The notes beneath the pieces are model-generated. The model saw only the letters and a list, made by a program, of their open reading frames with translations. It was not told the DNA's origin and did not search any database. From Chlamydiota bacterium (lineage in GTDB: Bacteria > Auribacterota > JACPWU01), in the NCBI GenBank assembly GCA_016196885.1, contig JACPWU010000021.1, forward strand, positions 1 to 32,000: 32,000 nt of DNA. The letters are read 5' to 3'. The position numbers and the translations under genes were made by a program. Numbering within the stretch: the stretch's first letter is position 1; each line of letters opens with the position of its first letter. Positions 6,900-31,036 of the stretch are shown one piece after another.

Positions 6900-6913
6900 G
6901 ATAAAACCAGTGC

Positions 6914-8730: not shown

Positions 8731-8780
8731 CTTAATTTTTTGTGACAATCCTTGAGGAGGTTTCGGTAAGCCGTATGAAT

Positions 8781-8855: not shown

Positions 8856-8892
8856 CGCAAGAGAAATACAAACAACACTTCACCCTACAACA

Positions 8893-9663: not shown

Positions 9664-9687
9664 GATTTAAACCCTTTAAGAAAAGCC

Positions 9688-9760
9688 CACAGTCCACGGT
9701 CCATAGTCGATAGAAAAATAAAAAATCCCTTCGAACTATTGACCATGGACTATGGACTGT
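9688..9760. repeat. Periodic-arm hairpin E (7-nt unit); right arm supplies the last fabZ codons
   Basis: Left arm reads cacagtc/cacggtc/catagtc/gatag. Right arm reads ctattga/ccatgga/ctatgga/ctgt. The loop contains AAAATCC (9722-9728). Confidence 0.88.
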
Positions 9761-10205
9761 TATGTTCCAGCTCCACCAAACCAAACATCAAATCTGCCTC
9801 GGCCACCAATTGATCTTGGACAAAGGCACTTCCTTTAACCATCCCTGTCTTACTGCGAGCCCGAAGCAGTTCAACTTCAAAACGCAATTGATCGCCTGGG
9901 ATCACCGTCTTTCGAAATCTTGCATTGTCAATCGCCGTAAAATAAGCAAGTTTGCCTTTCGCCTCAGCCCTGCTTAAAAGCATGACCCCCGCCACTTGGG
10001 CCATGGCTTCCAAAATCAATACACCCGGCATCACGGGATGCCCAGGGAAGTGACCTACAAAGAAACTTTCAGTGATCGTCACATTTTTCAAACCCACGGC
10101 CTTTGTGTCTGTCATTTCAAGCATCCGATCTACCAAGAGAAAAGGATAGCGATGAGGCAAAACTTTCTGAATGGCCACCGTATCTAAAATACCATCCGCC
10201 ATCAT
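9750..10205 (-). CDS. fabZ: 3-hydroxyacyl-ACP dehydratase FabZ
   Basis: 151 aa with motifs [12 protein letters not shown] and [27 protein letters not shown] lies upstream of the ATG. Confidence 0.95.
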
Positions 10206-10214
10206 AAATCCTCC

Positions 10215-11081
10215 TTAAGACCTCGCAAATTCGTGAATGGAACCTTCTTCAACCAACGCACTTGCCAATCGCTTGGCAAATTCAAAATTCATCGCATGAC
10301 CTGATTTGATGGCCATCACATGGGCCTTGAAAGGTTTTCCCAAAAGATAAAGATCCCCCATCAAATCCAAAACCTTATGCCGGACGCATTCATCCGGAAA
10401 CCTCAAACTTTCCTTGCTGAAAATGGCATCCTTTCCCACCACCACGGCATTGTCCAAACTCCCGCCCTTGATCAAACCTTGCTTCATCAAATATTCCACT
10501 TCATGATAAAAACAAAAGGTCCGACAAGGAGCGATTTGAGAAATAAAATTTTCTTCGTTCACTTCCACCGTATAAAATTGGTCCTTGATCTTGCTGTCCT
10601 TGTAAGACAGGGTAAATGAAATGCGGCAGCTCTCGGAGGGAATGGCCACCAAAGACGCATCACCCTCCTCGTAATAAACGGGTCTGGACAATCTCAAACA
10701 CGTTTTGAGAGACGCCTGCTCTTCGATCCCACTGGAGCGAATCATTTCGACAAAAGCCAGAGAACTTCCATCTCCCACGGGAGGTTCATTCGCCTCCATT
10801 TCAATCAGCAAATTGTCAATCCCACACCCCATCAAGGCCGCCAAAACATGTTCCACCGTATGAACCTTCACACCCTTTTCCTCAATGGTGGTCCCGCGTG
10901 TAACTCCTGTCACATTCGAGAGCCTCGCCTTCACCACCGGGCGCTCAGGAAGATCCATGCGAACAAATTCGATGCCCGTATTGGGAGGGGCAGGCAAAAA
11001 AGTAATGCGTGTTTTATTGCCCGTATGAAGGGCAATGCCTGAATAACTCACTTTTTTAGAAATCGTTTTTTGAAATGGCAT
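10215..11081 (-). CDS. lpxC: UDP-3-O-acyl-N-acetylglucosamine deacetylase
   Basis: 288 aa with motifs GIALHTGNK, TVEHVLAAL, FCFYHEVEYL and HKVLDLMGDL. Confidence 0.93.
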   Translation of the reverse strand: MPFQKTISKKVSYSGIALHTGNKTRITFLPAPPNTGIEFVRMDLPERPVVKARLSNVTGVTRGTTIEEKGVKVHTVEHVLAALMGCGIDNLLIEMEANEPPVGDGSSLAFVEMIRSSGIEEQASLKTCLRLSRPVYYEEGDASLVAIPSESCRISFTLSYKDSKIKDQFYTVEVNEENFISQIAPCRTFCFYHEVEYLMKQGLIKGGSLDNAVVVGKDAIFSKESLRFPDECVRHKVLDLMGDLYLLGKPFKAHVMAIKSGHAMNFEFAKRLASALVEEGSIHEFARS

Positions 11082-11088
11082 CTGAAAC

Positions 11089-12120
11089 CTACTGAGAATC
11101 TTTCAATTTCTCCACTTTTTTTTCCAACTCTTTCACCCGGTCGAAAAATGGACCCAGGCGGCGAACATTTGCAATATTTCTTTTTTCTTCTTGAATGGGA
11201 AGGGCGGGAGAGCCCCACAAAACCATACCTTTTGGCACATCCTTTGAAATTCCAGATTTTGCGGCAATAATAACCTCATCCCCCACTTCAATATGTCCGA
11301 CCAAACCCGCCTGTCCTCCAATAATCACATGATGACCAATCTGGGTCGTCCCGGAAATCCCCACTTGGGCTACAATCAGGCAATGTTCACCGATTTCAAC
11401 GTTATGGGCCACCTGAACCAAATTATCAATCTTGGTCCCTTTTTTAATCACCGTCTTCCCAAAGCGAGCGCGGTCCACCGTGACATTGGCCCCCATTTCT
11501 ACATCATCTCCTATCACCACATGTCCAACCTGGGGAATTTTATGATGAACCCCATCCACCGTCTCAAAACCAAAGCCGTCGCTACCAATCACTGTCCCAC
11601 TGTGAATGATGACACGATCCCCCATCACCGTCTCTTCTCGAATCGTGACATGGGGATAAATCAAAGTGTCTCGACCGACTTGACTGTGATGACCGATAAA
11701 CGAACCCGCCCCGATCGAGCTTCCTTTCCCAATCTGAACGCCCTCTTCAACCACGGCATAAGGGCCAATGTTTACCGATGGCCCTAAGGAAACGTCCTTC
11801 CCTAGAACGGCTGTAGGATGAATTCCCTTTGGAAATCCATTGGATGAAGGTTTAAACTGTTCAACAACCTTGTTAAAAGCCAGAGAAGGATTCTTACAGC
11901 GAATGACGGTTTTACCAGGAGGAGGAGAAATTTCCTCTCCTACCAAAACCGCACTGGCTCTCGTCTCATCCAAAAAAGGAAGATATTTAGGATTCGAAAG
12001 AAAAGTAATATCCCCTTCCCGGGCCTCCTTCATTCCGGCCACACCTCCAATCTTGATCTCTGGGCGACCCAAGAGTGTTCCTCCTACCAGTGTTGCAATG
12101 TCTTTTAAAGAAAGTTCCAT
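11089..12120 (-). CDS. lpxD: UDP-3-O-acylglucosamine N-acyltransferase
   Basis: 343 aa with the N-terminal LKDIATLVGG ... GDITFLSNPKY motif and a long LbH hexapeptide domain. It lies within the lpx cluster. Confidence 0.92.
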   Translation of the reverse strand: MELSLKDIATLVGGTLLGRPEIKIGGVAGMKEAREGDITFLSNPKYLPFLDETRASAVLVGEEISPPPGKTVIRCKNPSLAFNKVVEQFKPSSNGFPKGIHPTAVLGKDVSLGPSVNIGPYAVVEEGVQIGKGSSIGAGSFIGHHSQVGRDTLIYPHVTIREETVMGDRVIIHSGTVIGSDGFGFETVDGVHHKIPQVGHVVIGDDVEMGANVTVDRARFGKTVIKKGTKIDNLVQVAHNVEIGEHCLIVAQVGISGTTQIGHHVIIGGQAGLVGHIEVGDEVIIAAKSGISKDVPKGMVLWGSPALPIQEEKRNIANVRRLGPFFDRVKELEKKVEKLKDSQ

Positions 12121-12122
12121 GA

Positions 12123-12202
12123 AATACCGTTTCTCGTTTATCGTTGATCGTTTATCGTTAATGGAAATTCTATATTAACGTTTAACGTTCAACGTCTAAC
12201 AG
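12123..12202. repeat. Periodic-arm hairpin F (7-nt unit)
   Basis: Left arm 12123-12161 reads aataccgtt + tctcgtt/tatcgtt/gatcgtt/tatcgtt + aa. Right arm 12176-12202 reads ttaacgt/ttaacgt/tcaacgt/ctaacag. Confidence 0.9.
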
Positions 12203-12205
12203 CTT

Positions 12206-12748
12206 TTACTTTGCCTCCGCCGGCTTATCCTTCGCCCCTTGGGCTTTCGCCTTCGCCTTTTCATTCATTCTCTTGGTCACCTGTGCTGAAATATCATAGG
12301 TAGGGGTTTTATAAAGAAGGGCACGATCGTTGAAAATCAGATTGTACTTTCCTTCTTTTCCAATCTCCTCAATGGTGGCCTTGATATCATCAAAAATCCC
12401 CTTCAAGAGAAAATCCCTTTTGTTTCGAAGCTCGCTTTTTGTCTTTTCATCAAAATCCTTCAGTGCATTGATCTTCTCATTAATGACAGATTCCTTCTCT
12501 TTGCGAGCCTCTTCATTTAAAAGTTCTGATTCTTCCTTCAACTTCTTAATTTCATCCACCATCTTGGCCCTCTCAGCCGTTTTCCCCTTACCCTCTTCCT
12601 TCAACTTCGCATCATTCTGCTTCGTGAGGTCATATTCGTTAAAAACCTTTTCGACATCCACATAACCTATTTTTAAATCCTCTGCCCAAGCCTTGTTGAA
12701 CAAACTCAAAAAAAACAAACCCGCTACCACCATCGCCAACTTTTTCAT
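12206..12748 (-). CDS. skp: OmpH/Skp-family periplasmic chaperone
   Basis: 180 aa with signal peptide MKKLAMVVAGLFFLSLFNKAWA and a Lys/Glu-rich coiled-coil body. It occupies the canonical position between bamA and lpxD. Confidence 0.82.
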   Translation of the reverse strand: MKKLAMVVAGLFFLSLFNKAWAEDLKIGYVDVEKVFNEYDLTKQNDAKLKEEGKGKTAERAKMVDEIKKLKEESELLNEEARKEKESVINEKINALKDFDEKTKSELRNKRDFLLKGIFDDIKATIEEIGKEGKYNLIFNDRALLYKTPTYDISAQVTKRMNEKAKAKAQGAKDKPAEAK

Positions 12749-12773
12749 CTCAATCTCCCCTGTTTAATTTTTA

Positions 12774-15062
12774 TTAAAATGAATAACCGATATTAAAATC
12801 AAATCTCCCCTTGCTGTCCTGAAACCTGTCCCGATCAATGGGCCAACCATAATCCAAACGGATCGGGCCAATGGGCAACTCCAATCGAAGGCCAATTCCC
12901 GCGCCTGCCCTCAAATCCCCCAAATCAAATTCTCCATAATCCTCATACACATTCCCCGTGTCATAAAAAACAGCTCCGCGAACCTTTTCAATAATGGGAA
13001 ACGTCAGCTCAGTACTTCCCATAATCATGGAACTTCCTCCGATGGGTTCACCGTTTTCGTCCTTCGGGCCCACATCTCTAAACTTAAAACCGCGAATGGT
13101 ATTGGCCCCCCCTAAGAAAAATCTTTCGAAAAGGGGAACTCGATCCGTATCTCCGAAACTGTCCACCAAGCCCGCTTGACCACTCAAACGTAAAACGAGG
13201 GACAAGGGCAGGGGAAAATAAATGCTGTGCTTGGTCACATATTTCGTAAAATCGCGGTCAAGGCCCAGCGGTCCCCCTGCCAGCTCTCCACTGATCGCAT
13301 TTCGCATGCCCCGAGTGGGAGAAAGGGCGCTGTCGCGGGTATCCCGCGTCAGGGCCAATTCGATGCTGCTCACATCGGCTGTCCCTTCCTCTTGCTTAAT
13401 GGCATCCGAGGCCTTATCCGAAACATTTCGAATTTCATCCTCCTCCAAGGTGTAGGTCAAATCCGCTCTCACAAACTCCATCAATCTCTTCCCCAATCGA
13501 AGATCTCCTCCGGTTCTTCTTTCATCATAAACATCGCTCAAGAAACGGCTGTCCCTTCGGTAAAGATCCATACCGAAAGAGATCGGACGGTCAAAAAGCC
13601 ACGGCTCTGTCCAGCTCAACGTATAATCCTGGCGCTTGGTTCCCACCTGGGCTCGAATCCGAAGCTTCTGGCCATCGCCCGTAAAGGTGGGGAAACTCTT
13701 CCAATCAAAATTCTTTTGAGTGAGTTCCACAAAACCAATCAAATTATCAATCGAGCTGAAACCCGCCCCAAATCCGATCTCTCCCGTCTTCGTTTCCTCC
13801 ACATCAACTAAAAGATCCTTGTGATCCTCTTTATCCGTGGACTCAATGTCCATGTAGACGGTTTTGAAATATCCCAAATTCATCAAGCGCTCTTGGCTGC
13901 GGCGCACCTTGACCCCATTAAAAACCTCGCCCGGCTTCACGGCCAATTCCCGCCGAATTACAATGTCTTTGGTCTTCGTATTGCCCCGAATCTTAATCTC
14001 GTTTAAATAAGACATCTGGTTTTCCGTAATGGAATACGTGACATCAATACACTTGGTTTTGTCATTGTAAACAGTCTGGGGGCCAATCACCGCATCCACG
14101 TAGCCCTTGGCCAAATAATAATCCCGGATCTGATTCACATCATTCCTCAATTTATCCGGCGTAAAAATCTGCCCAGGGGTCATTTTAAAAGGCTGGGTGA
14201 TCTCTTGAGTCGGGAATGTCTCATTGCCCTCCATGACCACCTGTCCTACATAATAGAAGGAGCCCTCCTCTACCGTGATGAGAAGGGTCATCCTTCGACC
14301 CGTCTTGTCATAAGAAAATTTCACATCTTTAATTTCGGCATCAATGTAACCTTGAGAGCGATAAAACTCCAGTAAGCGTTCTTTATCCTCTTCAAAAACA
14401 TCCTCGTTGAAATTGCCCCCGAAAAAGATGAAAGGCCTTCGGGTTTTCATTACCTTGCGAAGACGCTTGGTGGGGATGGCTTTATTTCCTGAAAAATCCA
14501 CCCGCCGAATCTTGATATGAGCTCCCTCATGCACGTGGATGATGATGGCCGCATGTCCGATCTCCTTATCAATGGAGAGAGAATAATCCACTTGAGTATT
14601 GGGATAACCCTTGTCCCGGTAGAAATCCTTAATCGCCTGAACATCCTCTTTGAGCTGAGTTTCATTGAGGCGGTCCCCAATGGCCAATTTCATTTTTTTC
14701 TTCAAGGCCTTCTCATTAAATTTTTTATTTCCCTCAAAAACGATTTCCTTCACAATGGGTTTTTCAACCACGATAAAAGTCACCACCCACCCATCAAAAT
14801 CCTCGTATACATCCACCTGGACATCAGAGAAATAGCCCATCGCGTAGAGGCGCTTCAAATCATCGTCCACATCGGACTGCTGGAAGGAAGAGCCCTCATG
14901 TGTCTTTGCCCGGGACAGAATAAGATCCCGATTGATCGAGCGATTGCCCTGGACCTCCACCTTCTTCACAAGCTTCTCACCGGACGCTGCCCAAAGGAAT
15001 GTTCCCTGGCTCGTAAAGGCAATCCAAAAAACAAACAGACTTAAAATCATCTTCCGTATCAT
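12774..15062 (-). CDS. bamA: Outer membrane protein assembly factor BamA
   Basis: POTRA repeats are followed by an Omp85 beta-barrel that ends ...FDFNIGYSF (terminal aromatic residue). The start is trimmed to ATG 15062, which has GAGGGGG upstream and yields the signal peptide MIRKMILSLFVFWIAF. The ORF-track start at 15224 lies inside an inverted repeat. Confidence 0.9.
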   Translation of the reverse strand: MIRKMILSLFVFWIAFTSQGTFLWAASGEKLVKKVEVQGNRSINRDLILSRAKTHEGSSFQQSDVDDDLKRLYAMGYFSDVQVDVYEDFDGWVVTFIVVEKPIVKEIVFEGNKKFNEKALKKKMKLAIGDRLNETQLKEDVQAIKDFYRDKGYPNTQVDYSLSIDKEIGHAAIIIHVHEGAHIKIRRVDFSGNKAIPTKRLRKVMKTRRPFIFFGGNFNEDVFEEDKERLLEFYRSQGYIDAEIKDVKFSYDKTGRRMTLLITVEEGSFYYVGQVVMEGNETFPTQEITQPFKMTPGQIFTPDKLRNDVNQIRDYYLAKGYVDAVIGPQTVYNDKTKCIDVTYSITENQMSYLNEIKIRGNTKTKDIVIRRELAVKPGEVFNGVKVRRSQERLMNLGYFKTVYMDIESTDKEDHKDLLVDVEETKTGEIGFGAGFSSIDNLIGFVELTQKNFDWKSFPTFTGDGQKLRIRAQVGTKRQDYTLSWTEPWLFDRPISFGMDLYRRDSRFLSDVYDERRTGGDLRLGKRLMEFVRADLTYTLEEDEIRNVSDKASDAIKQEEGTADVSSIELALTRDTRDSALSPTRGMRNAISGELAGGPLGLDRDFTKYVTKHSIYFPLPLSLVLRLSGQAGLVDSFGDTDRVPLFERFFLGGANTIRGFKFRDVGPKDENGEPIGGSSMIMGSTELTFPIIEKVRGAVFYDTGNVYEDYGEFDLGDLRAGAGIGLRLELPIGPIRLDYGWPIDRDRFQDSKGRFDFNIGYSF

Positions 15063-15084
15063 GACTCCGCCCCCTCTTTTGAAT

Positions 15085-15244
15085 CCAAGGACAGAGATAG
15101 AAAATGAGAATCGAGACGCGACAGGTTGGCCCAGATGGACTTGAAGAAAACGTAGGCATACCTGCAAGGTACGTCGAGGCTTTCTGAAAGTCCAGATGGG
15201 CCAAGATGTCGCGTCGAATTCCATTTTCTATCTCTCTCCTTGGG
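15085..15244. repeat. Long imperfect inverted repeat (arms about 58 nt) between dnaB and bamA
   Basis: Left arm 15085-15143 reads ccaaggacagagatagaaaatgagaatcgagacgcgacaggttggcccagatggactt. The reverse complement of right arm 15187-15244 reads ccaaggagagagatagaaaatggaattcgacgcgacatcttggcccatctggactt. The outer part has a 7-nt stutter (agataga/aaatgag/aatcgag/acgcgac). Confidence 0.85.
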
Positions 15245-16583
15245 TTGAACTATGATTTTCAAAACGTGTGTACTCACTGATGAAGGTTAATTTTAAATCT
15301 CCCGTCGGCCCATTCCTCTGTTTGGCAATCATGATGTCGGCCTCGCCGGGAGAATCTTCTGGATTATAATACTCTCTTCTTAAAAGAAGCACCACTGTAT
15401 CAGCATCCTGTTCAATGGCCCCCGATTCTCGCAAATCCGAAAGCCGAGGTTTATTCTCAGGACGATTCTCAGCCGCCCGATTCAACTGAGAGAGAACGAG
15501 CACTGGAACATTCAACTCTCGGGCCAGGGCCTTTAAAGAACGGCTGATCTCTGAAATTTCCTGCTGCCGATTTTCAGATTTATTGCTGGAAGTCTGCATC
15601 AATTGAAGATAATCAATCACCAAAAGACGAATGTCATAGGCCGCCTTAAACCGCCGGGCCTTGGCCCTCAGCTCCGTTACGGAAAGACCCGGCGTATCAT
15701 CAATGTAAAGCGGGGCCTCGGAAAGCATGCTGGCCGAAGTCACCAATTGCGACCAATCTTTATTCGCAAGAAATCCCCTTCGAACATGATGAAGATTCAC
15801 CCGGGCATGAGAACATAAAAACCGCTGCACCAATTGCTCCTTGGACATTTCAAGGCTGAAAATCCCAACCGGCATTTTCTCCACCACGGCCACATGCTCC
15901 GCAATGTTCAGCGCAAAAGCCGTTTTCCCCATCGAGGGCCTGGCCGCAATGACAATCATGTCCGAAGCCTGAAGCCCCGAGGTCCGCTCGTCAAAATCTG
16001 CAAAACCGGTTGAAAGCCCGAGAAGCGCCCCCTTTTTCTGAAAGGCCCGGTCAATCGCCTCCATGCTCTGACGCACCAAATCCTTGAAGGGGAGATTGGA
16101 AGTGATTTGAGATCGCTTCTCGACAATGTCAAAAATCTTTTGCTCGGCCACATCCAAAAGCTTATCTACGGATTCTGGACCCTCATAACATTTGGAAATA
16201 ATCTCGCTCGCGGTATGAATTAAATTTCTCAAAACCGCTTTTTCGCGAACAATGCTCACATATTCTTCAACATGCGACGAGGAAGGCACCGCTTGTGGCA
16301 AGAGGGCAAGCGTACTTGCACCTCCCACCATCTCAATTTCATTCGCCTTTGAGAGAAATTCCGTCAAGGTAATCAGATCCAAAGGCCGATTGTGATCGTA
16401 AAGTTGAATCAGGGCATTAAAAACTTTCCGATGAGATTCCAGATAAAAACTATCAGGTTTCAACTGAGAAATCACCGTCGGAATGACCTCTTGATCAATC
16501 AAAATCGAGCCGAGAACGCCCATTTCGGCTTCGAGATTTTGAGGAGGTAATTTCTCGATGGGAACACCTGCAACTGACTTCAT
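15228..16583 (-). CDS. dnaB: Replicative DNA helicase DnaB
   Basis: Has the N-terminal PPQNLEAEMGVLGSIL motif, Walker A ARPSMGKTAFALN and the RecA-like C-terminal domain motifs. The start is placed at ATG 16583; the ORF-track TTG at 16610 overlaps rplI. Confidence 0.94.
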   Translation of the reverse strand: MKSVAGVPIEKLPPQNLEAEMGVLGSILIDQEVIPTVISQLKPDSFYLESHRKVFNALIQLYDHNRPLDLITLTEFLSKANEIEMVGGASTLALLPQAVPSSSHVEEYVSIVREKAVLRNLIHTASEIISKCYEGPESVDKLLDVAEQKIFDIVEKRSQITSNLPFKDLVRQSMEAIDRAFQKKGALLGLSTGFADFDERTSGLQASDMIVIAARPSMGKTAFALNIAEHVAVVEKMPVGIFSLEMSKEQLVQRFLCSHARVNLHHVRRGFLANKDWSQLVTSASMLSEAPLYIDDTPGLSVTELRAKARRFKAAYDIRLLVIDYLQLMQTSSNKSENRQQEISEISRSLKALARELNVPVLVLSQLNRAAENRPENKPRLSDLRESGAIEQDADTVVLLLRREYYNPEDSPGEADIMIAKQRNGPTGDLKLTFISEYTRFENHSSTQGER

Positions 16584-16596
16584 TCTGATAAAACCT

Positions 16597-17037
16597 CTAG
16601 GCCTTGACAACCACCACTTTTAATGAAGCTTCTACTTGGCTGTGTAATTTCACCGTGGCCTTAAAATCTCCAAGCGACTTAATCGCTTCTAAATGAATCT
16701 TCCTGCGATCTAACAAAATATCCTGTTTTTTTAAAGCTTGGGCCACATCTAAATGGGTCACAGAACCATACAATTTATTTTCTTTTCCCACACGTACGGG
16801 GATTTGACACTCCAAAGATTCCAGACGCGACTTTAAGGCTTGAGACTCTTCCAAAATCTTCTTCTCGGACGCCTCACGATTCTTAGCCACATCCTTCGCC
16901 ATGCGAATCACACCCTGATTCGCCAAGAGAGCCAAATGACGAGGAATCAAAAAATTACGGGCATACCCATCCGCCACTTTGACCACGGCACCTGCGTCAC
17001 CCAATTTTTCTATTTTCTCTAATAATAAAACTTCCAT
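16597..17037 (-). CDS. rplI: 50S ribosomal protein L9
   Basis: 146 aa beginning MEVLLLEKIEKLGDAGAVVKVADGYARNFLIP. AAGGAG lies upstream. It sits in the rpsF-ssb-rpsR-rplI order. Confidence 0.93.
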   Translation of the reverse strand: MEVLLLEKIEKLGDAGAVVKVADGYARNFLIPRHLALLANQGVIRMAKDVAKNREASEKKILEESQALKSRLESLECQIPVRVGKENKLYGSVTHLDVAQALKKQDILLDRRKIHLEAIKSLGDFKATVKLHSQVEASLKVVVVKA

Positions 17038-18451: not shown

Positions 18452-18536
18452 GAGCGTACAGCGTTGAGCGGACAGCGTACAGAAAAACAAATCCGCTCCC
18501 TGTAAACTAAACGCTAAACGCTGTCCGCTGAACGCT
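18452..18536. repeat. Periodic-arm hairpin J (7-nt unit); right arm overlaps the pth 3' end
   Basis: Left arm reads gagcgta/cagcgtt/gagcgga/cagcgta/cag. Right arm reads ctgtaaa/ctaaacg/ctaaacg/ctgtccg/ctgaacg/ct. The loop contains AAATCC (18489-18494). Confidence 0.9.
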
Positions 18537-19122
18537 TATTTTTCTCTTTCGACTGAGCGTCACTCAAACATTTCTCAGCGGTATCAAGACCTTCCCCCAC
18601 AAAGGCCATGACAAATTTGCAGGCCTTCTGAACCATTTTCTCAGTGCTGTCTAATTCGGACAAAGAAAAGGGACTCAACACATGCTTGGCATAATCTTCC
18701 TCTTTGTCCTCGGGAAGACCTACCCCCATGCGAAGCCTTGGAATTTCAAGGGTTGCACATGATTCCAAAATCGAAAGAAGACCCTTATGCCCGCCGGAAC
18801 TCCCTCGGGGCCGAAAACGCAAATGGCCCAGCTTCAAAAAAACATCGTCTAGTATAACCAAACTCTCTTGGCCAGACAATTTAAAATATTCCAGAATCTT
18901 TCGAAACGCCCGGCCGCTGTGGTTCATGTAAGTGGCGGGTTTGACCAAAAGAAAATCCTGACCCGCTCTCTTTCCCTCAGCAACCAGGCTTTCCCATCTA
19001 GATTCACGACGGAAACGGATGTCACATGCCCTTGCCAATTCATCCATCACCCAAAATCCGACATTGTGCCGTGTCGCGTGATATTTTTCGTCAGGATTGC
19101 CCAGGCCCACCAACATCCTCAT
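18514..19122 (-). CDS. pth: Peptidyl-tRNA hydrolase
   Basis: Has the motif MLVGLGNPDEKYHATRHNVGF. The start is trimmed to ATG 19122, which has GGGAG upstream. The ORF-track TTG at 19185 lies inside hairpin K. Confidence 0.92.
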   Translation of the reverse strand: MRMLVGLGNPDEKYHATRHNVGFWVMDELARACDIRFRRESRWESLVAEGKRAGQDFLLVKPATYMNHSGRAFRKILEYFKLSGQESLVILDDVFLKLGHLRFRPRGSSGGHKGLLSILESCATLEIPRLRMGVGLPEDKEEDYAKHVLSPFSLSELDSTEKMVQKACKFVMAFVGEGLDTAEKCLSDAQSKEKNKRSADSV

Positions 19123-19123
19123 A

Positions 19124-19244
19124 ATGACCAATCTCCCATTTCCAATGACAAATAAATGACCAACACCCCATTTCCAACGATTCAAGATGTGGGAAATGAG
19201 TCATTGGAGAATTGGAAATTAATTTGACATTTGTTATTGGTCAT
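19124..19244. repeat. Periodic/scrambled-word hairpin K
   Basis: Left arm reads atgaccaat..catttccaatgac..atgaccaac..catttccaac. Right arm reads gtgggaaatgagtcattggagaattggaaat...ttattggtcat. The arm ends are complementary and the interior reuses the same words in a different order. Confidence 0.7.
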
Positions 19245-20002: not shown

Positions 20003-20938
20003 TTATAAAAACAGCGAACTCACAGATTCATTCTCATGAATGCGTCGAATCGCCTCTCCTAAAAGTTCAGAAACGGTTAACACCTTAATTTTTCCATCCA
20101 ACTTTTTATCCTTCAAAGGGATGCTATCTGTCACCAGCAATTCCTTGATATGGGCCTTTTGAATTCTCTCTACTGCAGGGCCTGAAAGAATCGCATGGGC
20201 TGCTGTAGCGTAAATTTCGCTCGCCCCATTTTCATGCACAATTTTAGCGGCCTCGGCCAAGGATCCCGCCGTCGCAATCATGTCATCCACAATAATCGCG
20301 GCCTTTCCCCTGACATCCCCAATCAAATGAAGCACCTCCGCATCCGTTGCATTTACACGCCTCTTATCTACAATCGCCAAATCAGCTCCCAGCCTTGTTG
20401 CAAAGGCCCGGGCCCGCTTAATCCCTCCCACATCGGGAGTCACAATGACCCTGTTCTTTAAATTCAAGTCCTTTAAATAACGAATAAAAACCGGTGCCGA
20501 AAAAAGATGATCCAAGGGAATATCGAAAAATCCCTGAATCTGATCCGCATGTAAATCCATCGTCAAAACACGATCCGCACCGGCCGCCGTAATTAAATTG
20601 GCCACGAGCTTCGCCGTGATGGGAACCCGGGGCCTGTCCTTGCGATCCTGCCGTGCATACCCATAAAAAGGAAGCACCACGGTAAGCCTCGCCCCTGAGG
20701 CCCGGACAATGGCATCCATGATAATCAAAAGCTCCATCATGTTTTCATTGGCCGGGGGACACGTGGACTGCACCACGAAAACATCCCGCCCCCGAATGTC
20801 TTGATTGATGCGAACAAAAATCTCCCCCTCGCTGAACCTGGAAATCTCAATTTCGCCCAAGGGGATTTTTAAATAATCCGCGATTCTTTTCGCCAACTCA
20901 GGATTCGACGTACCTGAGAAAATGACCATTTCTTTCAT
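20003..20938 (-). CDS. prs: Ribose-phosphate pyrophosphokinase
   Basis: 311 aa with the PRPP-binding loop IIVDDMIATAGS and motifs YARQDRK and HADQIQGFF. Confidence 0.95.
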   Translation of the reverse strand: MKEMVIFSGTSNPELAKRIADYLKIPLGEIEISRFSEGEIFVRINQDIRGRDVFVVQSTCPPANENMMELLIIMDAIVRASGARLTVVLPFYGYARQDRKDRPRVPITAKLVANLITAAGADRVLTMDLHADQIQGFFDIPLDHLFSAPVFIRYLKDLNLKNRVIVTPDVGGIKRARAFATRLGADLAIVDKRRVNATDAEVLHLIGDVRGKAAIIVDDMIATAGSLAEAAKIVHENGASEIYATAAHAILSGPAVERIQKAHIKELLVTDSIPLKDKKLDGKIKVLTVSELLGEAIRRIHENESVSSLFL

Positions 20939-20955: not shown

Positions 20956-21046
20956 AGAAGTCAGAATTCAGAAGTCAGAATAATAAGGAGGTTATTTTAT
21001 TCTGAATTCTGTCTTCTTACTTCTGTTTTCTGACTTCTGAATTCTG
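20956..21046. repeat. Periodic-arm hairpin L (7-nt unit); right arm overlaps the glmU 3' end
   Basis: Left arm reads agaagtc/agaattc/agaagtc/agaataa. Right arm reads ttattct/gaattct/gtcttct/tacttct/gttttct/gacttct/gaattct. Confidence 0.9.
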
Positions 21047-22297
21047 TTGTAATATCTTCGCCGGCACTCCCACCACCACAGCTCCATCTGGAATATTTTT
21101 CCCGCGTGTCACCACAGCACCCGCTCCCGTCACCGCCCTTTTCCCCATCTGCACAGGTGCCACAAAAATGGTCCCGCTTCCGACAAAAGCCCCTTCATCA
21201 ATCTGAGTTGTGTGTTTGGCCTCCCCATCATAATTGGCCGTGATCGTTCCTGCGCCTACATTCACATGAGGACCCACTTGGGCATTCCCCAAATAGGTCA
21301 AATGCTTTGCCTTCGTCCCCTCTCCTATTTGAGAAGCCTTTACCTCCACAAAATTTCCAATCTCCACGCGGTCGGATAAATTTGTCCCCCCGCGAATATG
21401 GGTAAAGGGTCCAATCTCGCATGAGCGACCGATCTTCACCTCTCCTTCAATGACCGTAAAAGGATGAATCACCGAATCTTGTCCAATCTCTACCGTTTCA
21501 TCAATGAAGGTAGAGGCAGGATCTATCAGCGTCACTCCCTGATACATCAAGTTTTCCAGCACTCTTTGACGCAAGACTTTTTCGGCTTGCGCCAACTGAG
21601 CCCTGGAATTGATGCCCATGATCTCATGGGCATCATCCACACAATACGCGGATATGGGCTTATTTTGAAGAGCTAAAATCTGAATCGCATCGGTCAAATA
21701 AAGCTCATTTTTCTCCGGATGAATTTGAATTTCATTCAGCGCATCCTGAAGGGCCGGCCAATCAAAACAATAGGTTCCGGAGTTAATTTCCTCAATGGCC
21801 TTTTCGTAAACCGTTGCGTGAGCCTCTTCTACAACACTAATCACTTCATCGTTACCACCGCGGACAATACGGCCATAACCGGTTGGATTAGGAAGCCTCC
21901 CTGTCAAAATCGCTCCATAGTATTGATCTTGCTCATGTTTTTCAACAAATTTTTTCAAAGTTTCTAAACGAAGGAGTGGGGCATCCGCACATAAAATTAA
22001 AACATCCCCCTGCCATTTTTTTAAAAAGGACCGAGCTGCCAGCACGGCATGCGCTGTCCCGAGGGGTTTTTCTTGAACTGCAAATTCAAAACCGGCGGGT
22101 AACTCTTTCTCAAGGGCCTCCCCTTGAGGACTCACAACCACAATTTTTTTCTCCAGAGGTAAACCCCCACACAGCTCTGCACTACGGCGAATCAAAGACT
22201 TTCCACATACTTGATGAAGCACCTTGGGAATAGAAGATTTCATCCTCTTGCCCTCTCCCGCCGCTAAAATAATGGCGATCATGCCTTTTTTCTCCAT
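21017..22297 (-). CDS. glmU: Bifunctional GlcNAc-1-P uridyltransferase / GlcN-1-P acetyltransferase
   Basis: 426 aa with the N-terminal LAAGEGKRMKSSIPKVLH nucleotidyltransferase motif and a C-terminal LbH acetyltransferase domain. It sits in a glmU-prs-ctc-pth order. Confidence 0.9.
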   Translation of the reverse strand: MEKKGMIAIILAAGEGKRMKSSIPKVLHQVCGKSLIRRSAELCGGLPLEKKIVVVSPQGEALEKELPAGFEFAVQEKPLGTAHAVLAARSFLKKWQGDVLILCADAPLLRLETLKKFVEKHEQDQYYGAILTGRLPNPTGYGRIVRGGNDEVISVVEEAHATVYEKAIEEINSGTYCFDWPALQDALNEIQIHPEKNELYLTDAIQILALQNKPISAYCVDDAHEIMGINSRAQLAQAEKVLRQRVLENLMYQGVTLIDPASTFIDETVEIGQDSVIHPFTVIEGEVKIGRSCEIGPFTHIRGGTNLSDRVEIGNFVEVKASQIGEGTKAKHLTYLGNAQVGPHVNVGAGTITANYDGEAKHTTQIDEGAFVGSGTIFVAPVQMGKRAVTGAGAVVTRGKNIPDGAVVVGVPAKILQQNSEVRKQK

Positions 22298-22427: not shown

Positions 22428-22498
22428 TGCCCGGTGGTGTAATGGTAACACAGCAGTTTTTGGAGCTGCTTTTCTAGGTTCGAATCCTAGCCGGGCAG
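22428..22498 (+). tRNA. tRNA-Gln(UUG)
   Basis: Reads TGCCCGG-TG-GTGT-AATGGTA-ACAC-A-GCAGT-TTTTGGA-GCTGC-TTTT-CTAGG-TTCGAAT-CCTAG-CCGGGCA-G. The acceptor stem is a perfect 7 bp and the anticodon is TTG. No CCA is encoded. Confidence 0.9.
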
Positions 22499-22502
22499 CT
22501 TA

Positions 22503-22650: not shown

Positions 22651-23037
22651 TTAACCCTTCTTTCTTTCCGCTTCGTAGGCCTCTAACACCTTTGTTTGAA
22701 TGTAATCTCTGGCTTCGACGGTGATGGGATGTGCAATGTCTCTATGATCTTCCTTGCGATCCTCGTCTTCTGAATGACCTTTCTCTGAAAGAGAGTGCTC
22801 GGGCAATTTCGCCCCGCACTGCGAACAAAACTTGCTCCGAACGGGCACTTTTTTATGACATTTCAGGCAGGGTTCCTTCATTTTCACACTGGGCATCGCA
22901 ACAAATAAACCCTTTTTTCCCTCAATGATTTTTAAATCCCTGACCACAAACATGTCATCAAAGGTGAGGGTGACAAAAGCTTTCAATTTATTGTCTTCGG
23001 ACTGCGTGAGATGAACTTTGACCTGTGTGATTTGCAT
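22651..23037 (-). CDS. spoVG: SpoVG-family protein with an inserted zinc-ribbon loop
   Basis: The SpoVG core is MQITQVKVHL...LKAFVTLTFDDMFVVRDLKIIEGKKGLFVAMPS ... RDIAHPIT. It is interrupted by about 47 aa containing CLKC-x10-CSQCGAKL. The start is ATG 23037 with GAGGTGAGG upstream. The ORF-track extension to 23169 overlaps ispE. Confidence 0.85.
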   Translation of the reverse strand: MQITQVKVHLTQSEDNKLKAFVTLTFDDMFVVRDLKIIEGKKGLFVAMPSVKMKEPCLKCHKKVPVRSKFCSQCGAKLPEHSLSEKGHSEDEDRKEDHRDIAHPITVEARDYIQTKVLEAYEAERKKG

Positions 23038-23047
23038 CGTCCTCACC

Positions 23048-23917
23048 TCATCTTCCAACTCGCGTCTCGCACACACATGTCCAACACTCAGGAAACTCGC
23101 TCTGAATGATCTTTCGAATCTCGCAAGCGCTAGTTTGAGAAGGGGCCAGGCCAAAAAGGGTGGGACCACTACCTGAAAGAAGCGACCCCACAGCCCCTGC
23201 TCTTCTCAACATCTCTTTCATCGAAACGAGTGGAGGAAATTTCTTTAAAACCACATCCTCTAAACGATTCAAAAGGTTGCTTGCAAGGTCCCCAAGACGC
23301 CCTTCCTTGAGCGCTCCAAGTACTATTTTAAGATCACCGGCGCCTTGAGTCAAGGTCAAATTCAATTTCCCATAAACCTCAGGCGTGGGAACTTTAAATC
23401 GGGGATTGACCAACACCAGAGAAAAAGGTTTTACCCCTTTTACTTCTTCCAAAATATCCCCGATGCCTCTTCCCAAGGCGGTACCCCCCGTGAGAAAAAA
23501 AGGGACATCGGCACCCAAGGATTGTGCGATTTGAAAACTTTTCTCGGGCGGTAAGCGCATTTGAAAAAGCCGCTCAAGACCCTGGAGCGTCCAAGCCGCA
23601 TTGCTCGAGCCCCCGCCCAGTCCTGCGGCCACGGGAATATTTTTTTGGATTCGGATGCGTACCCCCTTTTTGATTTTGGACGCTTCAAAAAAGGCCTGGG
23701 CCGCTGAAAAGGCCAAATTGCTAGGGCCCCTCGGAATGTCTGGATTCTCAGAAACAATCTCAATACCGGAAGAGATTTTTTCTAAAAAAATTTCATCCGC
23801 AAGCGTGATTTCTTGAAACACCGTTTCAATATCGTGATAGCCATCTTCCCTTTTGCGAAGCACCTCTAAATAGAGATTCACCTTGGCGGGAGAAAGAATA
23901 GCAATGGAATCACTCAT
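23048..23917 (-). CDS. ispE: 4-diphosphocytidyl-2-C-methyl-D-erythritol kinase
   Basis: 289 aa with motifs PAKVNLYLEVLRKREDGYHDI and the GHMP kinase loop PVAAGLGGGSSNAA. Confidence 0.9.
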   Translation of the reverse strand: MSDSIAILSPAKVNLYLEVLRKREDGYHDIETVFQEITLADEIFLEKISSGIEIVSENPDIPRGPSNLAFSAAQAFFEASKIKKGVRIRIQKNIPVAAGLGGGSSNAAWTLQGLERLFQMRLPPEKSFQIAQSLGADVPFFLTGGTALGRGIGDILEEVKGVKPFSLVLVNPRFKVPTPEVYGKLNLTLTQGAGDLKIVLGALKEGRLGDLASNLLNRLEDVVLKKFPPLVSMKEMLRRAGAVGSLLSGSGPTLFGLAPSQTSACEIRKIIQSEFPECWTCVCETRVGR

Positions 23918-24095: not shown

Positions 24096-24182
24096 TTACT
24101 TCTTATGACGATCCCTTCGACTTCTTTTCTTTCTTTTGTGCTTATTCATCTTTGCTTTTCTTTTCTTGCGACCGCAAGGCAT
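24096..24182 (-). CDS. 28-aa highly basic protein, bS22-like (AURKAIP1/COX24-type small ribosomal protein)
   Basis: This ORF is not in the ORF track because it is under 60 aa. Manual translation gives MPCGRKKRKAKMNKHKRKKRSRRDRHKK*. AAGGAG lies 6 nt upstream of the ATG and a terminator follows. The pattern K-M-x-x-HKRKKR-x-R-x-x-RHKK matches my recollection of bacterial bS22 sequences. Confidence 0.55.
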   Translation of the reverse strand: MPCGRKKRKAKMNKHKRKKRSRRDRHKK

Positions 24183-26798: not shown

Positions 26799-26896
26799 CT
26801 CAAATCCAAATATCAAAAATCAAAGATCAAAATTAAGGAAGAATTCAATTTAATGGACTCCTTAATTTTGGATTTTGAATTTTGGACTTTGATTTT
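26799..26896. repeat. Periodic-arm hairpin N in the divergent purN / response-regulator spacer
   Basis: Left arm reads ctcaaatc/caaatatc/aaaaatc/aaagatc/aaaatta/agga. Right arm reads tccttaa/ttttgga/ttttgaa/ttttgga/ctttgat/ttt. Confidence 0.85.
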
Positions 26897-26905
26897 AAGG
26901 TAACC

Positions 26906-28336
26906 ATGGCCTATAAAATTTTAATCGTAGATGATGACGAAGCCATTCGCTATTCGGTTTCCCGCATGCTTTCAGAAGAAGGCTATGAAATCCTTTCTGC
27001 CTCCTCCACAAAAGAAGCGATGGATGTCACCTCTAGGGAATCACCCGACACCGTTCTCATGGACATTCGCATGGGAACGAGCTCGGGCCTTGAAACCCTT
27101 CGCGAACTTAAAAAAATAGATGAGAAACTGCCTGTGATTCTGATGACCGCCTTTGGAACCACACAAACAGCCATCGAGGCCATGAAGCGCGGGGCCTTTG
27201 ATTATGTTCTTAAACCTTTCGAACCTTCGGAATTAAAAGAACTCATTCAAAAAGCCGTCCATGCCCGTATTTCCATGCATCAAAAAGTGAATTTTGAACC
27301 CGGGACAGCCATCAACCTCGAGCAGGACCTCATTGTAGGATCCTCTAAAAAGATGCAAGAGGTTTATAAAATGATCGGGCAAGTAGCCCCCAAAGATGTT
27401 TCTCTCTTGATTCGGGGTGAAAGTGGGACGGGTAAAGAATTAGTAGCCCGAGCCGTTTACCATCATAGCGCACGACGAGATAAACCCTTTTTACCTGTAA
27501 ACTGCGCCGCTATTCCGGAAGCCCTTTTGGAAAGCGAACTTTTCGGACATGAGAAAGGGGCCTTCACGGGAGCTTCTTCCCAACGCATTGGGAAATTCGA
27601 ACAATGTCATGAGGGAACGATTTTCTTGGATGAAATTGGGGACATGGCTCCGTCTACACAAGCAAAATTTTTACGTGTTCTTCAAGAAAAAGAATTTCAA
27701 AGAATCGGAGGAACCCAAACGCTGCGTGTGAACGTTCGTGTCATCGCTGCAACCAATAAAAATCTTGAAGAGGAAATGAAAAAAGGTCATTTTAGAGAAG
27801 ACCTGTTTTACCGCCTGAACACGATCACGATTTGGCTTCCCCCCTTGCGCGAGAAAAAAGAAGACATCCCAGAATTATGTCTCTACTTTCTAAAAAGATT
27901 TTCCCTGGAATTCAACAAGAATATTCTCGGATTTCATCCCGCGGGTCTTAAGGCCCTGACCCATTATTCCTGGCCGGGGAATATTCGAGAATTGGAGAAC
28001 ACGATCAAAAGGATGGTGATCACCACCAAGGGCAATTTAATATTGCCAGAAGACATTCAAATGCCTGAAGGGGAAAAAGAAAAGGGTCCAGGGTCCAGGA
28101 TCCAAGGGAACATTCCCCAGATTGCTCAAACCATCTTTGATCTGATTCTAGAAGCCCAGGGACGCAATGAACAAGGTGAGATCATGGACCATGTCGAAAA
28201 AGAGCTGATCAAATTAGCTTTGGAAGAAACGCAAGGCAACCAACTTAAGGCTGCTCAAATCTTGGGGATGAATCGCTCAACTTTGCGAAAAAAAATTGAA
28301 ACCTACAAAATCGTCAAAGGAGTGGTGGTGGAATAA
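26906..28336 (+). CDS. Sigma-54-dependent response regulator (NtrC family)
   Basis: Has a receiver domain (ILIVDDDEAIRY ... MDIRM). The AAA+ domain carries Walker A GESGTGKE and the sigma-54 contact loop EKGAFTGA. A C-terminal Fis-type HTH (AAQILGMNRSTLRKKI) is present. The start is trimmed to ATG 26906, because the ORF-track TTG at 26882 lies in hairpin N. Confidence 0.88.
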   Translation: MAYKILIVDDDEAIRYSVSRMLSEEGYEILSASSTKEAMDVTSRESPDTVLMDIRMGTSSGLETLRELKKIDEKLPVILMTAFGTTQTAIEAMKRGAFDYVLKPFEPSELKELIQKAVHARISMHQKVNFEPGTAINLEQDLIVGSSKKMQEVYKMIGQVAPKDVSLLIRGESGTGKELVARAVYHHSARRDKPFLPVNCAAIPEALLESELFGHEKGAFTGASSQRIGKFEQCHEGTIFLDEIGDMAPSTQAKFLRVLQEKEFQRIGGTQTLRVNVRVIAATNKNLEEEMKKGHFREDLFYRLNTITIWLPPLREKKEDIPELCLYFLKRFSLEFNKNILGFHPAGLKALTHYSWPGNIRELENTIKRMVITTKGNLILPEDIQMPEGEKEKGPGSRIQGNIPQIAQTIFDLILEAQGRNEQGEIMDHVEKELIKLALEETQGNQLKAAQILGMNRSTLRKKIETYKIVKGVVVE

Positions 28337-28354
28337 AATCGACAGAATTTTATT

Positions 28355-31036
28355 ATGAAAATCAATCTCGAAAAAATCCTGAGTCATGCCCAAGCTGAAC
28401 TCCGCGTCCTTCCTCAGGGAGGAGATCAAGATTGGACTCGCCTCTTCAAAAAATTTCTTCACGTTGAGAACCATCGCCTTCTCATGGCCCATCGGTATGG
28501 AGCAGAAGGCCTCACCCTCATTCAAAACCGAAGCCATCTCATGGATATTTTGGTGAGGCATATTTTTGAATTGGCGCAAAGAGAGTACGCGATTCAACAC
28601 GAGAGACCCCCCGTCAAAATGGCCCTGATTGCCCTGGGAGGCTACGGACGCCAAACCCTCAATCCCTGCTCGGACATTGACATTCTTTTTTTGGCGAAAC
28701 AATCCTTGCAAACGCCCGAGGATCAAATTCTAAAACGCATTCTTTATCTTCTCTGGGACATTGGGCTCAAAGTGGGACAAGCGGTGAGAACCATTCCTCA
28801 AACAATCGAAGAGGGAAATCGCGATTTTAAATCTCGGACCGCGATGATGGAGGCCCGTTTCATCACGGGAGATGAATCCCTTTTTGAAGAATTTCAAAAG
28901 CTCTTTTCCAAAAAATGTTCATCCCTTCGCATCGCAGATTATGTAGCCTTTAAACTTGAAGAGATCAAGACGCGCCATCAGAAATATCAGGGAACCGTTT
29001 ATTTGCAAGAACCCCACGTGAAAGAAGGCGTGGGGGGCTTAAGAGACATCGCCTCGATTCTTTGGCTTTATCAAGCCCTGAAGGGGTACCGAAGCTTTGA
29101 AGAACTTTTGGAACATCGCCTTATTTCAGAAAAAGAATTCAAGATCATCCAGAAATCCCTCAACTTTCTTCACCGCGTTCGAAATGAACTTCATTTTCTT
29201 TCTGGAAAATGTTTCGACATTCTTTCCGTTCCCCTGCAGCCTAAGGTCGCGAGAAATCTAGGCTACCGTGACACACCGATTCTCAAAATGTCTGAATCCT
29301 TCATGAAGGATTATTACCTTCATGTTCGAAACATCCATCAAATCACGCAAATGTTCCTTTCCCGAGACGAGATTCAAACCCAGCTCAAAATCCCTTTCCC
29401 CCAAAAATTCGTTCAGCGCCATGGGTTCTCATTCACCGCGGAAGAAATTTTTCCGGGAGAAAATCCAAATCTTTTCAGAGAAAATCCAGCCAAACTCTTC
29501 GAAGTCTTTCTCTACTGTGCCCAAGGCAATGACTCCCTCAGTCAAAGCTTAATTCAGCAAATTCGAGAGCATCTCTTTTTGGTGAATAAAAAAATACAAA
29601 GCTCTTCAGAAATATTGAATCACTTTGTTTCCCTCATGAGCTATGAAAGCCCCATTTCCAAAGCCCTTCGGGCCATGCATGATACAGGATTGCTTGGAAA
29701 GTATATTCCAGAATTCGGGAAGGCCACTTGTTTTGTTCAGCATGATTTCTATCATAAATACACCCTCGACGAACACACCTTGAAAGTGATCGAGTTTCTG
29801 GACGAACTTAAAACCACACAAGATCCCCGACAGCAAGGATTCTCGAAATTATTTAAGGAAATTCAAGAGCGGGACGTGCTTTTCCTCTCGGCCCTTTTTC
29901 ATGACATTGCCAAAACCCAAGGTCATAACCATGCTGTGAATGGGGCTAAAATGGTGCAAGTGATTTTCGAGAGAATGCCTTACGACCCTATGAAGGCCGA
30001 GCGCGTGCGGCTCCTGGTCGAGCAACATCTGGTCATGTCTCATCTGTCGCAAAGAAGAGATCTCTCGGAAGAAAAAGTGATCATTGATTTTTCACAAAAG
30101 GTGGTGGATGTAGAAAATCTAAAAATGCTTCAGCTCTTGACTTTTGCGGACTGGCGGGCGACCAGCGAAGACGTTTGGACTGAATGGCGAGAGGCCCTTT
30201 TATGGGAGCTTTTTTATAAAACCAAGCGCTACCTGGAAGAAAAGGTGATTTTGCTCCCCTCAGAGATAGATGCCATGAAGGAATCGCACCTCGAGATTCT
30301 CACCCAAAAGGGCTTCTCTCGAGAGACCCTTATAAACCATCTGGAAACGCTGCCCGTCCATTATCTTCAGGCGTATCGTTCTGAAACCATCGCCGAACAT
30401 ATCAAGATGATTGAAGCACTTCAAAATCAAGACCCCCAAATCCATTGGGACTATCATGAAAAAACCAATGTCACGGACCTGACCATCTGCACGCGAGATC
30501 ATCTGGGACTTTTTTCGGAAATGGCGGGGGTGATTGCAAGCCAAGAAGTGAACATTTTGAGCGCTCATATCTTCACGCGAAAAGATGGTTTCATTCTGGA
30601 TAAATTCTCCCTGGAAAACCGTTACGAAAAGGGCATGCTCGACGAGCGGACACGTCAGAAAGTGGAAGAAGGAATGAGGAAGGTTTTGAAACGCACGGTG
30701 ACGGTGGAAAGCTTTTTAAGGGCCCACACATCTCAAAAAATGACTGCCAAGAAGGCACAAGCCTTGATTAAATTTGACAACGAAACCAGCCTTGCCACCA
30801 CTGTCGTGGAAATTCAAACGGATGATGAAGTGGGATTTCTCTATAAGGTCACGCGAACGTTTTCAAAGCTGGGACTCAACATTCACCTGGCCAAAATTGC
30901 GACGGAAAAAGCTCAAATATTGGATGTCTTTTACATCACCGATTTTGACGGAAAGAAAATTGACCACCCCAAGGTTCAAAAAGCGATTCAAGAAGAGCTT
31001 CAAAAAGCCATCCAAAGCCCGTTGGAAGAGATTTAA
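28355..31036 (+). CDS. glnD: [Protein-PII] uridylyltransferase / uridylyl-removing enzyme
   Basis: 893 aa with the nucleotidyltransferase motif GGYGRQTLNPCSDIDILFL and an HD domain (LFHDIAK). Two C-terminal ACT-like domains are present. Length and architecture match GlnD. Confidence 0.88.
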   Translation: MKINLEKILSHAQAELRVLPQGGDQDWTRLFKKFLHVENHRLLMAHRYGAEGLTLIQNRSHLMDILVRHIFELAQREYAIQHERPPVKMALIALGGYGRQTLNPCSDIDILFLAKQSLQTPEDQILKRILYLLWDIGLKVGQAVRTIPQTIEEGNRDFKSRTAMMEARFITGDESLFEEFQKLFSKKCSSLRIADYVAFKLEEIKTRHQKYQGTVYLQEPHVKEGVGGLRDIASILWLYQALKGYRSFEELLEHRLISEKEFKIIQKSLNFLHRVRNELHFLSGKCFDILSVPLQPKVARNLGYRDTPILKMSESFMKDYYLHVRNIHQITQMFLSRDEIQTQLKIPFPQKFVQRHGFSFTAEEIFPGENPNLFRENPAKLFEVFLYCAQGNDSLSQSLIQQIREHLFLVNKKIQSSSEILNHFVSLMSYESPISKALRAMHDTGLLGKYIPEFGKATCFVQHDFYHKYTLDEHTLKVIEFLDELKTTQDPRQQGFSKLFKEIQERDVLFLSALFHDIAKTQGHNHAVNGAKMVQVIFERMPYDPMKAERVRLLVEQHLVMSHLSQRRDLSEEKVIIDFSQKVVDVENLKMLQLLTFADWRATSEDVWTEWREALLWELFYKTKRYLEEKVILLPSEIDAMKESHLEILTQKGFSRETLINHLETLPVHYLQAYRSETIAEHIKMIEALQNQDPQIHWDYHEKTNVTDLTICTRDHLGLFSEMAGVIASQEVNILSAHIFTRKDGFILDKFSLENRYEKGMLDERTRQKVEEGMRKVLKRTVTVESFLRAHTSQKMTAKKAQALIKFDNETSLATTVVEIQTDDEVGFLYKVTRTFSKLGLNIHLAKIATEKAQILDVFYITDFDGKKIDHPKVQKAIQEELQKAIQSPLEEI

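Follow-up and report, generated by a model that had tools for sequence, protein, structure and literature searches.

A Cys4 zinc ribbon in the LFVAMPS-RDIAHP loop of SpoVG, present in several bacterial phyla and possibly enlarging the nucleic-acid-binding face

The spoVG gene of a 32,000-nucleotide stretch of contig JACPWU010000021.1 (assembly GCA_016196885.1), referred to here as the window, was confirmed to encode a genuine SpoVG with one PF13240-type Cys4 zinc ribbon, followed by an acidic linker, in the loop between LFVAMPS and RDIAHP. The ribbon-bearing form is the normal SpoVG in several phyla (Planctomycetota, Omnitrophota and allied phyla) and not a one-off, the window gene being a typical representative of a large subfamily that has been noted in part before. 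The protein is an ordinary SpoVG orthologue encoded in the conserved ispE-spoVG-tRNA-Gln-glmU-prs-rplY-pth cluster, and its ribbon most likely enlarges the nucleic-acid-binding face, a reading held with moderate confidence. SpoVG is a widespread, mechanistically unclear DNA- and RNA-binding regulator that has been studied in Firmicutes and Borrelia only, and its solved structures are all of the short-loop form. Whole phyla use a SpoVG in which a conserved, basic zinc ribbon sits precisely where the nucleic-acid-binding doublet has been mapped; this form is a natural experiment on ligand recognition by SpoVG, and its carriers include the Planctomycetota, a phylum with some genetically tractable members.

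The spoVG coding sequence occupies 22651-23037 on the minus strand (128 codons plus stop), with a frame that runs unbroken from the ATG at 23037 to the stop at 22651 and a product of 128 aa. A longer ORF of 172 aa from a GTG at 23169, found in the mechanical ORF list, is spurious and runs into ispE; this start was ruled out by the homologues, which all begin with M-[EQ]-I-T, and by a Shine-Dalgarno-like sequence before the ATG at 23037. The latter, read from the sequence as GAGGTGAGGA (23040-23049, minus strand), lies directly 5' of the spoVG ATG and overlaps the ispE stop codon (TGA, 23048-23050). The gap between ispE (a GHMP kinase gene, 23048-23917, minus strand, directly upstream) and spoVG is 10 nt, and we infer that spoVG is translationally coupled to ispE. 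The identical gene call is present in GCA_016178005.1, a MAG labelled 'Chlamydiae bacterium', from which the identical protein was deposited (contig JACOUD010000001.1); the protein was also assembled independently from run SRR12113387. The possibility that a frameshift, a chimeric assembly or a mis-called ORF makes the apparent insert, for which the spurious GTG 23169 ORF might be cited, has a negligible probability against the unbroken reading frame, the same protein assembled independently in a second dataset and the identical architecture in hundreds of homologues. An artefact of frameshift or assembly is excluded, and the error within 22744-22887 that the earlier note had named as a possible refutation was not present in the continuous frame or in the independent assembly.

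The insert, 22744-22887, corresponds exactly to codons 51-98 of spoVG (VKMKEPCLKCHKKVPVRSKFCSQCGAKLPEHSLSEKGHSEDEDRKEDH, 48 residues). In a phmmer comparison with PDB sequences, residues 1-52 and 97-122 were aligned to the SpoVG proteins of S. epidermidis and B. subtilis, the first stretch matching residues 4-54 of 2i9x, 2i9z and 2ia9 and the second residues 59-85 of the PDB SpoVG proteins; the solved SpoVGs have only 4 residues between the two aligned stretches. Where canonical SpoVG has the 8-residue KRTPDGEF turn, the window protein has 48 residues of Cys4 ribbon and acidic linker, a net gain of 40, and the gap of about 47 residues against about 8 put forward in the earlier note thus agrees with the count. 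The N-terminal beta-sheet core comprises residues 1-50 and ends in GLFVAMPS (22888-23037, minus strand), and is followed by V51-K52 (22882-22887, minus strand), which corresponds to the basic doublet formed by K50 and R51 in the S. aureus protein. The Cys4 ribbon, CLKCHKKVPVRSKFCSQCGAKL, occupies residues 57-78 (22804-22869, minus strand), and the acidic variable linker, PEHSLSEKGHSEDEDRKEDH, with a net charge of -5, residues 79-98 (22744-22803, minus strand), ending in the nearly invariant H98. The C-terminal part (22651-22743, minus strand), assigned like the core from the PDB alignment and the AlphaFold2 model, consists of the RDIAHP strand and the C-terminal helix (residues 99-128) and the stop codon. 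An acidic linker after the ribbon had been described before and is borne out here; its length ranges from 9 to 27 residues across the family.

Both Pfam models proposed earlier scored above their cutoffs in the window protein. The SpoVG model PF04026 gave 99.6 bits (cutoff 29.6; 1.1e-28) over positions 1-81 of the 82 in the model, the insert forming an unaligned loop, and the Zn_Ribbon_1 model PF13240, which we take to be the zinc_ribbon_2 of older Pfam releases, gave 27.1 bits (cutoff 25) at residues 57-78 and 29.6 bits with the insert alone, so that the assignment of the CxxC-x10-CxxC insert to this type stands. The presumed ligands C57, C60, C71 and C74 are the sole cysteines of the protein. 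The double zinc ribbon model DZR (PF12773) was rejected for the window protein, with 24.2 bits against a cutoff of 27.3 and a match to one ribbon only (model positions 26-45 of 45); among 72 family members, DZR was matched by 69 and PF13240 by 57 (E <= 1e-3). The NCBIfam equivalog NF009749, 'septation regulator SpoVG', is split into two matches by the insert and scored 90.3 bits, below its cutoff of 108, in keeping with the designation '...SpoVG family protein' used by NCBI; among the NCBIfam models, none is dedicated to ribbon-bearing SpoVG. H98 was considered as a fifth metal ligand, which is unlikely, as 133 of 149 insert-bearing aligned rows have H at position 98 and the other 16 have Y, and the residue before RDIAHP is F in canonical SpoVG; the position looks instead like one of aromatic packing.

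The AlphaFold2 model of the window SpoVG, built on a 72-sequence alignment, has the SpoVG fold of an N-terminal beta-sheet and a C-terminal helix, with a mean pLDDT of 79 (85-93 in the SpoVG core, about 77-80 in the ribbon and below 50 at residues 82-95 of the linker, which is flexible and disordered). The predicted strands of the core span residues 3-10, 18-26, 30-39 and 44-47 (pLDDT 85-91), short strands are predicted in the ribbon at 54-56 and 63-65, and the C-terminal helix spans 107-127 (pLDDT about 90). The comparison with crystal structures, suggested in the earlier note, returned SpoVG throughout: each of the ten best Foldseek matches in the PDB was a crystal structure of SpoVG (probability 1.00, target-normalised TM 0.66-0.81).

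The ribbon is conserved well beyond the window. Among the best 120 homologues (57-75% identity), CxxC-x10-CxxC was found in the same loop in 120/120, with invariant cysteines. A HMMER search of 1.84 billion representatives of 50%-identity clusters returned 4284 proteins at E <= 1e-3, and the ribbon was present in 148 of the 150 best of these, the two exceptions being canonical-loop proteins. The latter (P0122, 388 aa, and P0196, 149 aa) have canonical short loops and 8 and 4 SpoVG-matching stretches, respectively, and are tandem-repeat SpoVG proteins. In an unconstrained MAFFT alignment, cysteine occupied all four columns in 149/149 insert-bearing rows, and the spacing AMPS-x6-CxxC-x10-CxxC is fixed across the family. 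Such invariance far exceeds what chance would give. A lack of cysteine conservation among close homologues, which had been named as grounds for abandoning the idea of a zinc ribbon, was thus not observed. Additionally, scanning a single genome for each GTDB species gave at least 80 loci, a lower bound on the range, and the ribbon type was found in 80/80 of the spoVG loci listed. The record titles of these loci name Omnitrophota, Auribacterota, Desantisbacteria, Candidatus Theseobacter, a 'PVC group' bacterium and many Planctomycetota; the last cover Phycisphaerae, Pirellulales, Gemmatales and Isosphaerales and include complete genomes of cultured Singulisphaera and Tundrisphaera. Ribbon-bearing SpoVG was also found in MAGs labelled Chlamydiae or Chlamydiota. 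Two of the ribbon-type spoVG genes lie on contigs of 2.9 and 4.6 kb from MAGs titled Alcaligenaceae and Anaerolineales (L048 and L049, respectively), which are probably binning errors. The survey of homologues therefore supports the insertion with its cysteines and makes it much less unusual than the earlier note implied, since several phyla have it in their normal SpoVG.

Conservation is not confined to the cysteines. Besides the four cysteines, G75 and six or more other positions are kept across several phyla in sequences only 44-60% identical overall. The conserved basic positions of the ribbon are 59 (78%), 63 (92%), 67 (90%) and 69 (90%), and the other conserved positions are N64 (93%), F/Y70 (96%) and G75 (98%). 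After AMPS, the doublet RK is found in 82% of the ribbon-bearing relatives and position 52 is basic in 99%; the net charge of the 29-residue segment of doublet plus ribbon averages +5.6 over some 347 unique sequences. The window clade departs from this consensus, with V at 51 in place of R/K and V or I at 64 in place of N; its doublet is VK, and in the window protein (V51-K52) the second residue alone is basic.

An insert at this place has been published. Gupta, Bhandari and Naushad (2012, PMC3444138) described, in the accessible portion of their paper, a 'Planctomycetes-specific' signature indel of 32-36 aa in a conserved SpoVG region; in that portion the insert is treated as a taxonomic marker and stated to be absent outside Planctomycetes, and neither zinc nor the cysteines of the insert are mentioned. 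The loop is 44 residues long in the planctomycete sequences retrieved, 36 more than the canonical 8; it occupies the site of the ribbon and likewise contains CxxC-x10-CxxC. Because of this agreement in gain, site and the four cysteines, the published indel, as described in the part of that paper available, is very probably the same insert as the zinc ribbon. Contrary to the published claim, it is also present in Omnitrophota, Auribacterota, Desantisbacteria, Theseobacter and MAGs labelled Chlamydiae or Chlamydiota; it is not Planctomycetes-specific, and is a weaker taxonomic marker for not being restricted to one phylum. What was already known, then, is the insert itself, to judge from the accessible text of 2012, and its Pfam domains, which are precomputed in public protein tables. 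A search of the full-text literature on SpoVG together with zinc (ribbon), Planctomycetes or Chlamydia found no functional or structural account of the ribbon form, and the zinc-ribbon nature of the insert and its breadth beyond Planctomycetes are likewise absent from that searchable literature.

The gene neighbourhood is that of a housekeeping spoVG. Downstream of spoVG in the window lie tRNA-Gln(UUG) (22428-22499, plus strand), a conserved neighbour between spoVG and glmU, then glmU (21017-22297, minus strand), prs (20003-20938), rplY, encoding L25 (19253-19993), and pth (18514-19185). The gene ispE stands immediately before spoVG wherever a related locus extends far enough upstream, and most non-planctomycete loci that reach far enough downstream have tRNA-Gln, glmU, prs, rplY (L25) and pth in the order of the window, often with hisG upstream. 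The full cluster was found in Omnitrophota, Auribacterota, Desantisbacteria, Theseobacter and the PVC-group bacterium, and also in a few loci titled Planctomycetia or Planctomycetales (L016, L044, L046 and L063); most Planctomycetota loci have the ispE-spoVG pair alone. The neighbourhood of canonical spoVG (glmU, prs, rplY, pth) is the same as that of the window. This conserved context indicates that the ribbon-bearing protein is the housekeeping SpoVG in its usual place, and not a paralogue or a fusion confined to one genome. The ispE-spoVG-glmU order reported in the earlier note was right and continues into prs, rplY and pth, but its description as a Firmicute-type context was too narrow, the cluster being widely conserved.

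The relationship of the ribbon to other small zinc-binding modules was also considered. With generic ribbons (PF13240 and DZR PF12773, as in DZANK1, eL40 and bL33) it shares CxxC-x10-CxxC and the FCxxCG second knuckle. It differs from them in being nested in the loop of another domain instead of forming a terminal or free-standing one, and in its family-conserved K63, N64, R67 and K/R69, which are not demanded by the general models. When a ribbon profile was compared with the PDB, 60 matches were listed, including DZANK1 (1.5e-12), eL40 (0.004) and bL33 (0.003); the closest solved relatives among the matches listed were the DZANK1 ribbons, the regulatory protein 9sfa and the rRNA-contacting eL40, bL33 and eL37. 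Some RanBP2-type zinc fingers bind single-stranded RNA, and the pattern of this finger (PF00641) is, as we take it, W-x-C-x2-4-C-x3-N-x6-C-x2-C. The family consensus C-x2-C-x3-N-x6-C-x2-C has the RanBP2 spacing including the Asn, PF00641 was weakly matched by 6 of 72 members at E <= 1e-3, and Foldseek returned weak local matches of the window model to the fingers of NUP153 and NUP358. Assignment to the RanBP2 type was nevertheless rejected: the Trp that should stand before the first Cys is absent (D/E is at its position), the window protein has V64 in place of the Asn and no PF00641 match, and no RanBP2-type finger was among the 60 PDB profile matches listed. The likeness is a resemblance and not membership.

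The relatives also differ in their C-termini. A low-complexity C-terminal tail is present in 234 of 267 relatives, and the 33 tail-less proteins include the window SpoVG. The tails are disordered and rich in P, S and A (P0014-P0120, P0121-P0269); Omnitrophota-like sequences have the tip ..[DE][DE]DIEL-COOH, and planctomycete-like sequences, which reach 520 aa, a ..FGAGIL-like one. Counted by pattern, the tips are ..D[IL]E[LF] in 88 and F[GSD]xG[ILV] in 106, the last eight residues having a mean charge of -2.3, and the conserved tips look, by their sequences, like short linear interaction motifs. The mean linker charge was -3.5 in the tail-less proteins (n=33) against -0.7 in the tailed ones (n=234), a difference with a Mann-Whitney p of 2e-9 and a Spearman rho of 0.60 in a comparison that ignores kinship. 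Speculatively, an acidic element that rivals nucleic acid in binding to the basic ribbon would fit this pattern.

The residues through which SpoVG contacts DNA have been mapped. K50 and R51 of S. aureus SpoVG and R53 and R54 of the B. burgdorferi protein are each essential for DNA binding, the six residues that open the C-terminal helix (S. aureus S66-E71) set the sequence preference, and the doublet was modelled in a pocket beside that helix (Jutras et al. 2013, PMC3688583). The window protein shares fold and family with the canonical proteins of B. subtilis, S. aureus/S. epidermidis, L. monocytogenes and B. burgdorferi (2i9x, 2i9z, 2ia9), including the LFVAMPS and RDIAHP strands and the C-terminal helix; its K52 aligns with the second residue of the canonical doublet, and its first six helix residues correspond to the S66-E71 stretch. 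By analogy with the canonical proteins, its basic activity is presumably that of a DNA- and RNA-binding regulator (PMC3688583, PMC4959528). The four cysteines would hold one zinc ion and fold residues from about 53 to 79 into a small two-hairpin knuckle. The insert begins directly after the basic doublet, which contacts the DNA backbone in the SpoVG proteins studied, with the ribbon four residues on, and the chain returns at H98-RDIAHP just before the specificity helix. So placed, the ribbon would most likely act as a zinc-stabilised extension of the nucleic-acid-binding face, adding backbone contacts that would strengthen binding or change which of RNA, ssDNA and dsDNA is preferred. It may further be speculated that the acidic linker of the window protein, or in the tailed relatives the acidic tip of the C-terminus, folds back on the basic ribbon and damps binding.

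The position of the ribbon next to the DNA-binding doublet and helix, together with its conserved basic and aromatic side chains and the rRNA-contacting ribbons eL40 and bL33 among the closest solved relatives listed, argues that a larger nucleic-acid-binding face is its most likely contribution. The earlier suggestion that the insert could alter binding specificity or add to it is strengthened by the point at which the insert starts, immediately behind the doublet that is essential in S. aureus and B. burgdorferi SpoVG (PMC3688583). Some observations weigh against this reading, namely the V in place of R/K at the first doublet position and the V or I in place of N64 in the window clade, and the possibility that the ligand of such a conserved basic surface is instead an acidic protein. 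Small zinc ribbons make protein-protein contacts as often as nucleic-acid contacts, and Cys4 sites can serve as redox sensors. The ribbon might be a module for protein-protein contact or oligomerisation, recruiting SpoVG to a partner such as the ribosome, RNA polymerase or an RNase, or a zinc- or redox-sensitive switch that would give up its zinc when the thiols are oxidised and so alter SpoVG activity, in either case without touching nucleic acid. The PDB ribbons of the same type do include the protein-protein staples Rpb12, Rpb9 and Nop10, and the short C-terminal motifs conserved in the relatives (..DIEL and FGxGIL-like) suggest that partner binding matters. Such a role is plausible but less likely, at about one chance in four, given that the conserved non-Cys positions are overwhelmingly basic, that the ribbon adjoins the mapped DNA-binding doublet (PMC3688583) and that, across the loci surveyed, no partner gene tracks the ribbon, the neighbours there being the housekeeping genes that flank canonical spoVG.

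A bolder extension of the nucleic-acid-binding reading, somewhat less probable still, would make the ribbon-bearing proteins of Planctomycetota, Omnitrophota and allied phyla a functionally distinct, zinc-dependent class of global nucleic-acid-binding regulators, in which the basic ribbon forms a second surface gated by an acidic element (the internal linker in tail-less proteins such as that of the window, the C-terminal tip of the disordered tail in the others) in the manner of the acidic SSB and Hfq tips, possibly responsive to zinc or thiol redox state. At the other extreme, the insert could be a functionally neutral lineage marker, an elaborated tolerant loop that leaves the action of SpoVG unchanged. 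Its description, in the accessible text of PMC3444138, solely as a conserved signature indel would fit with this, as would the surface exposure of the loop and the highly variable length and sequence of its linker half. Neutrality is, however, unlikely, because conservation extends beyond the cysteines to G75 and the further positions kept across phyla; moreover, no Cys-less (degenerate) insert was found among the 149 insert-bearing rows.

Some minor features of the locus can be added. The tRNA-Gln(UUG) gene is on the strand opposite to spoVG in the window and in the two closest genomes (L084, 5813-5883; L085, 5481-5554) and co-directional with spoVG in 20 other loci, as if this one tRNA gene had been inverted in the clade while the cluster around it stayed collinear. 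Between hisG and ispE, at 24096-24182 on the minus strand, lies a hyperbasic ORF of 28 aa, MPCGRKKRKAKMNKHKRKKRSRRDRHKK, which was recovered by tblastn with 64-100% identity at the same position in at least 15 loci (Omnitrophota, Theseobacter, the PVC-group bacterium and the window clade). It had no match in Pfam or NCBIfam, and the deposited assembly has no gene call at this place; it probably encodes a small, conserved basic protein that has escaped annotation, presumably resembling the bS22/AURKAIP1-like ribosomal peptides. The remainder of the window at 4069-16610 and 26882-31036 holds ordinary diderm housekeeping genes, among them a lipid-A cluster (lpxD, lpxC, fabZ, lpxA, lpxI, lpxB and an MsbA-like ABC exporter), ompH, bamA, dnaB, rplI, ssb, a sigma-54 response regulator and a GlnD-like uridylyltransferase.
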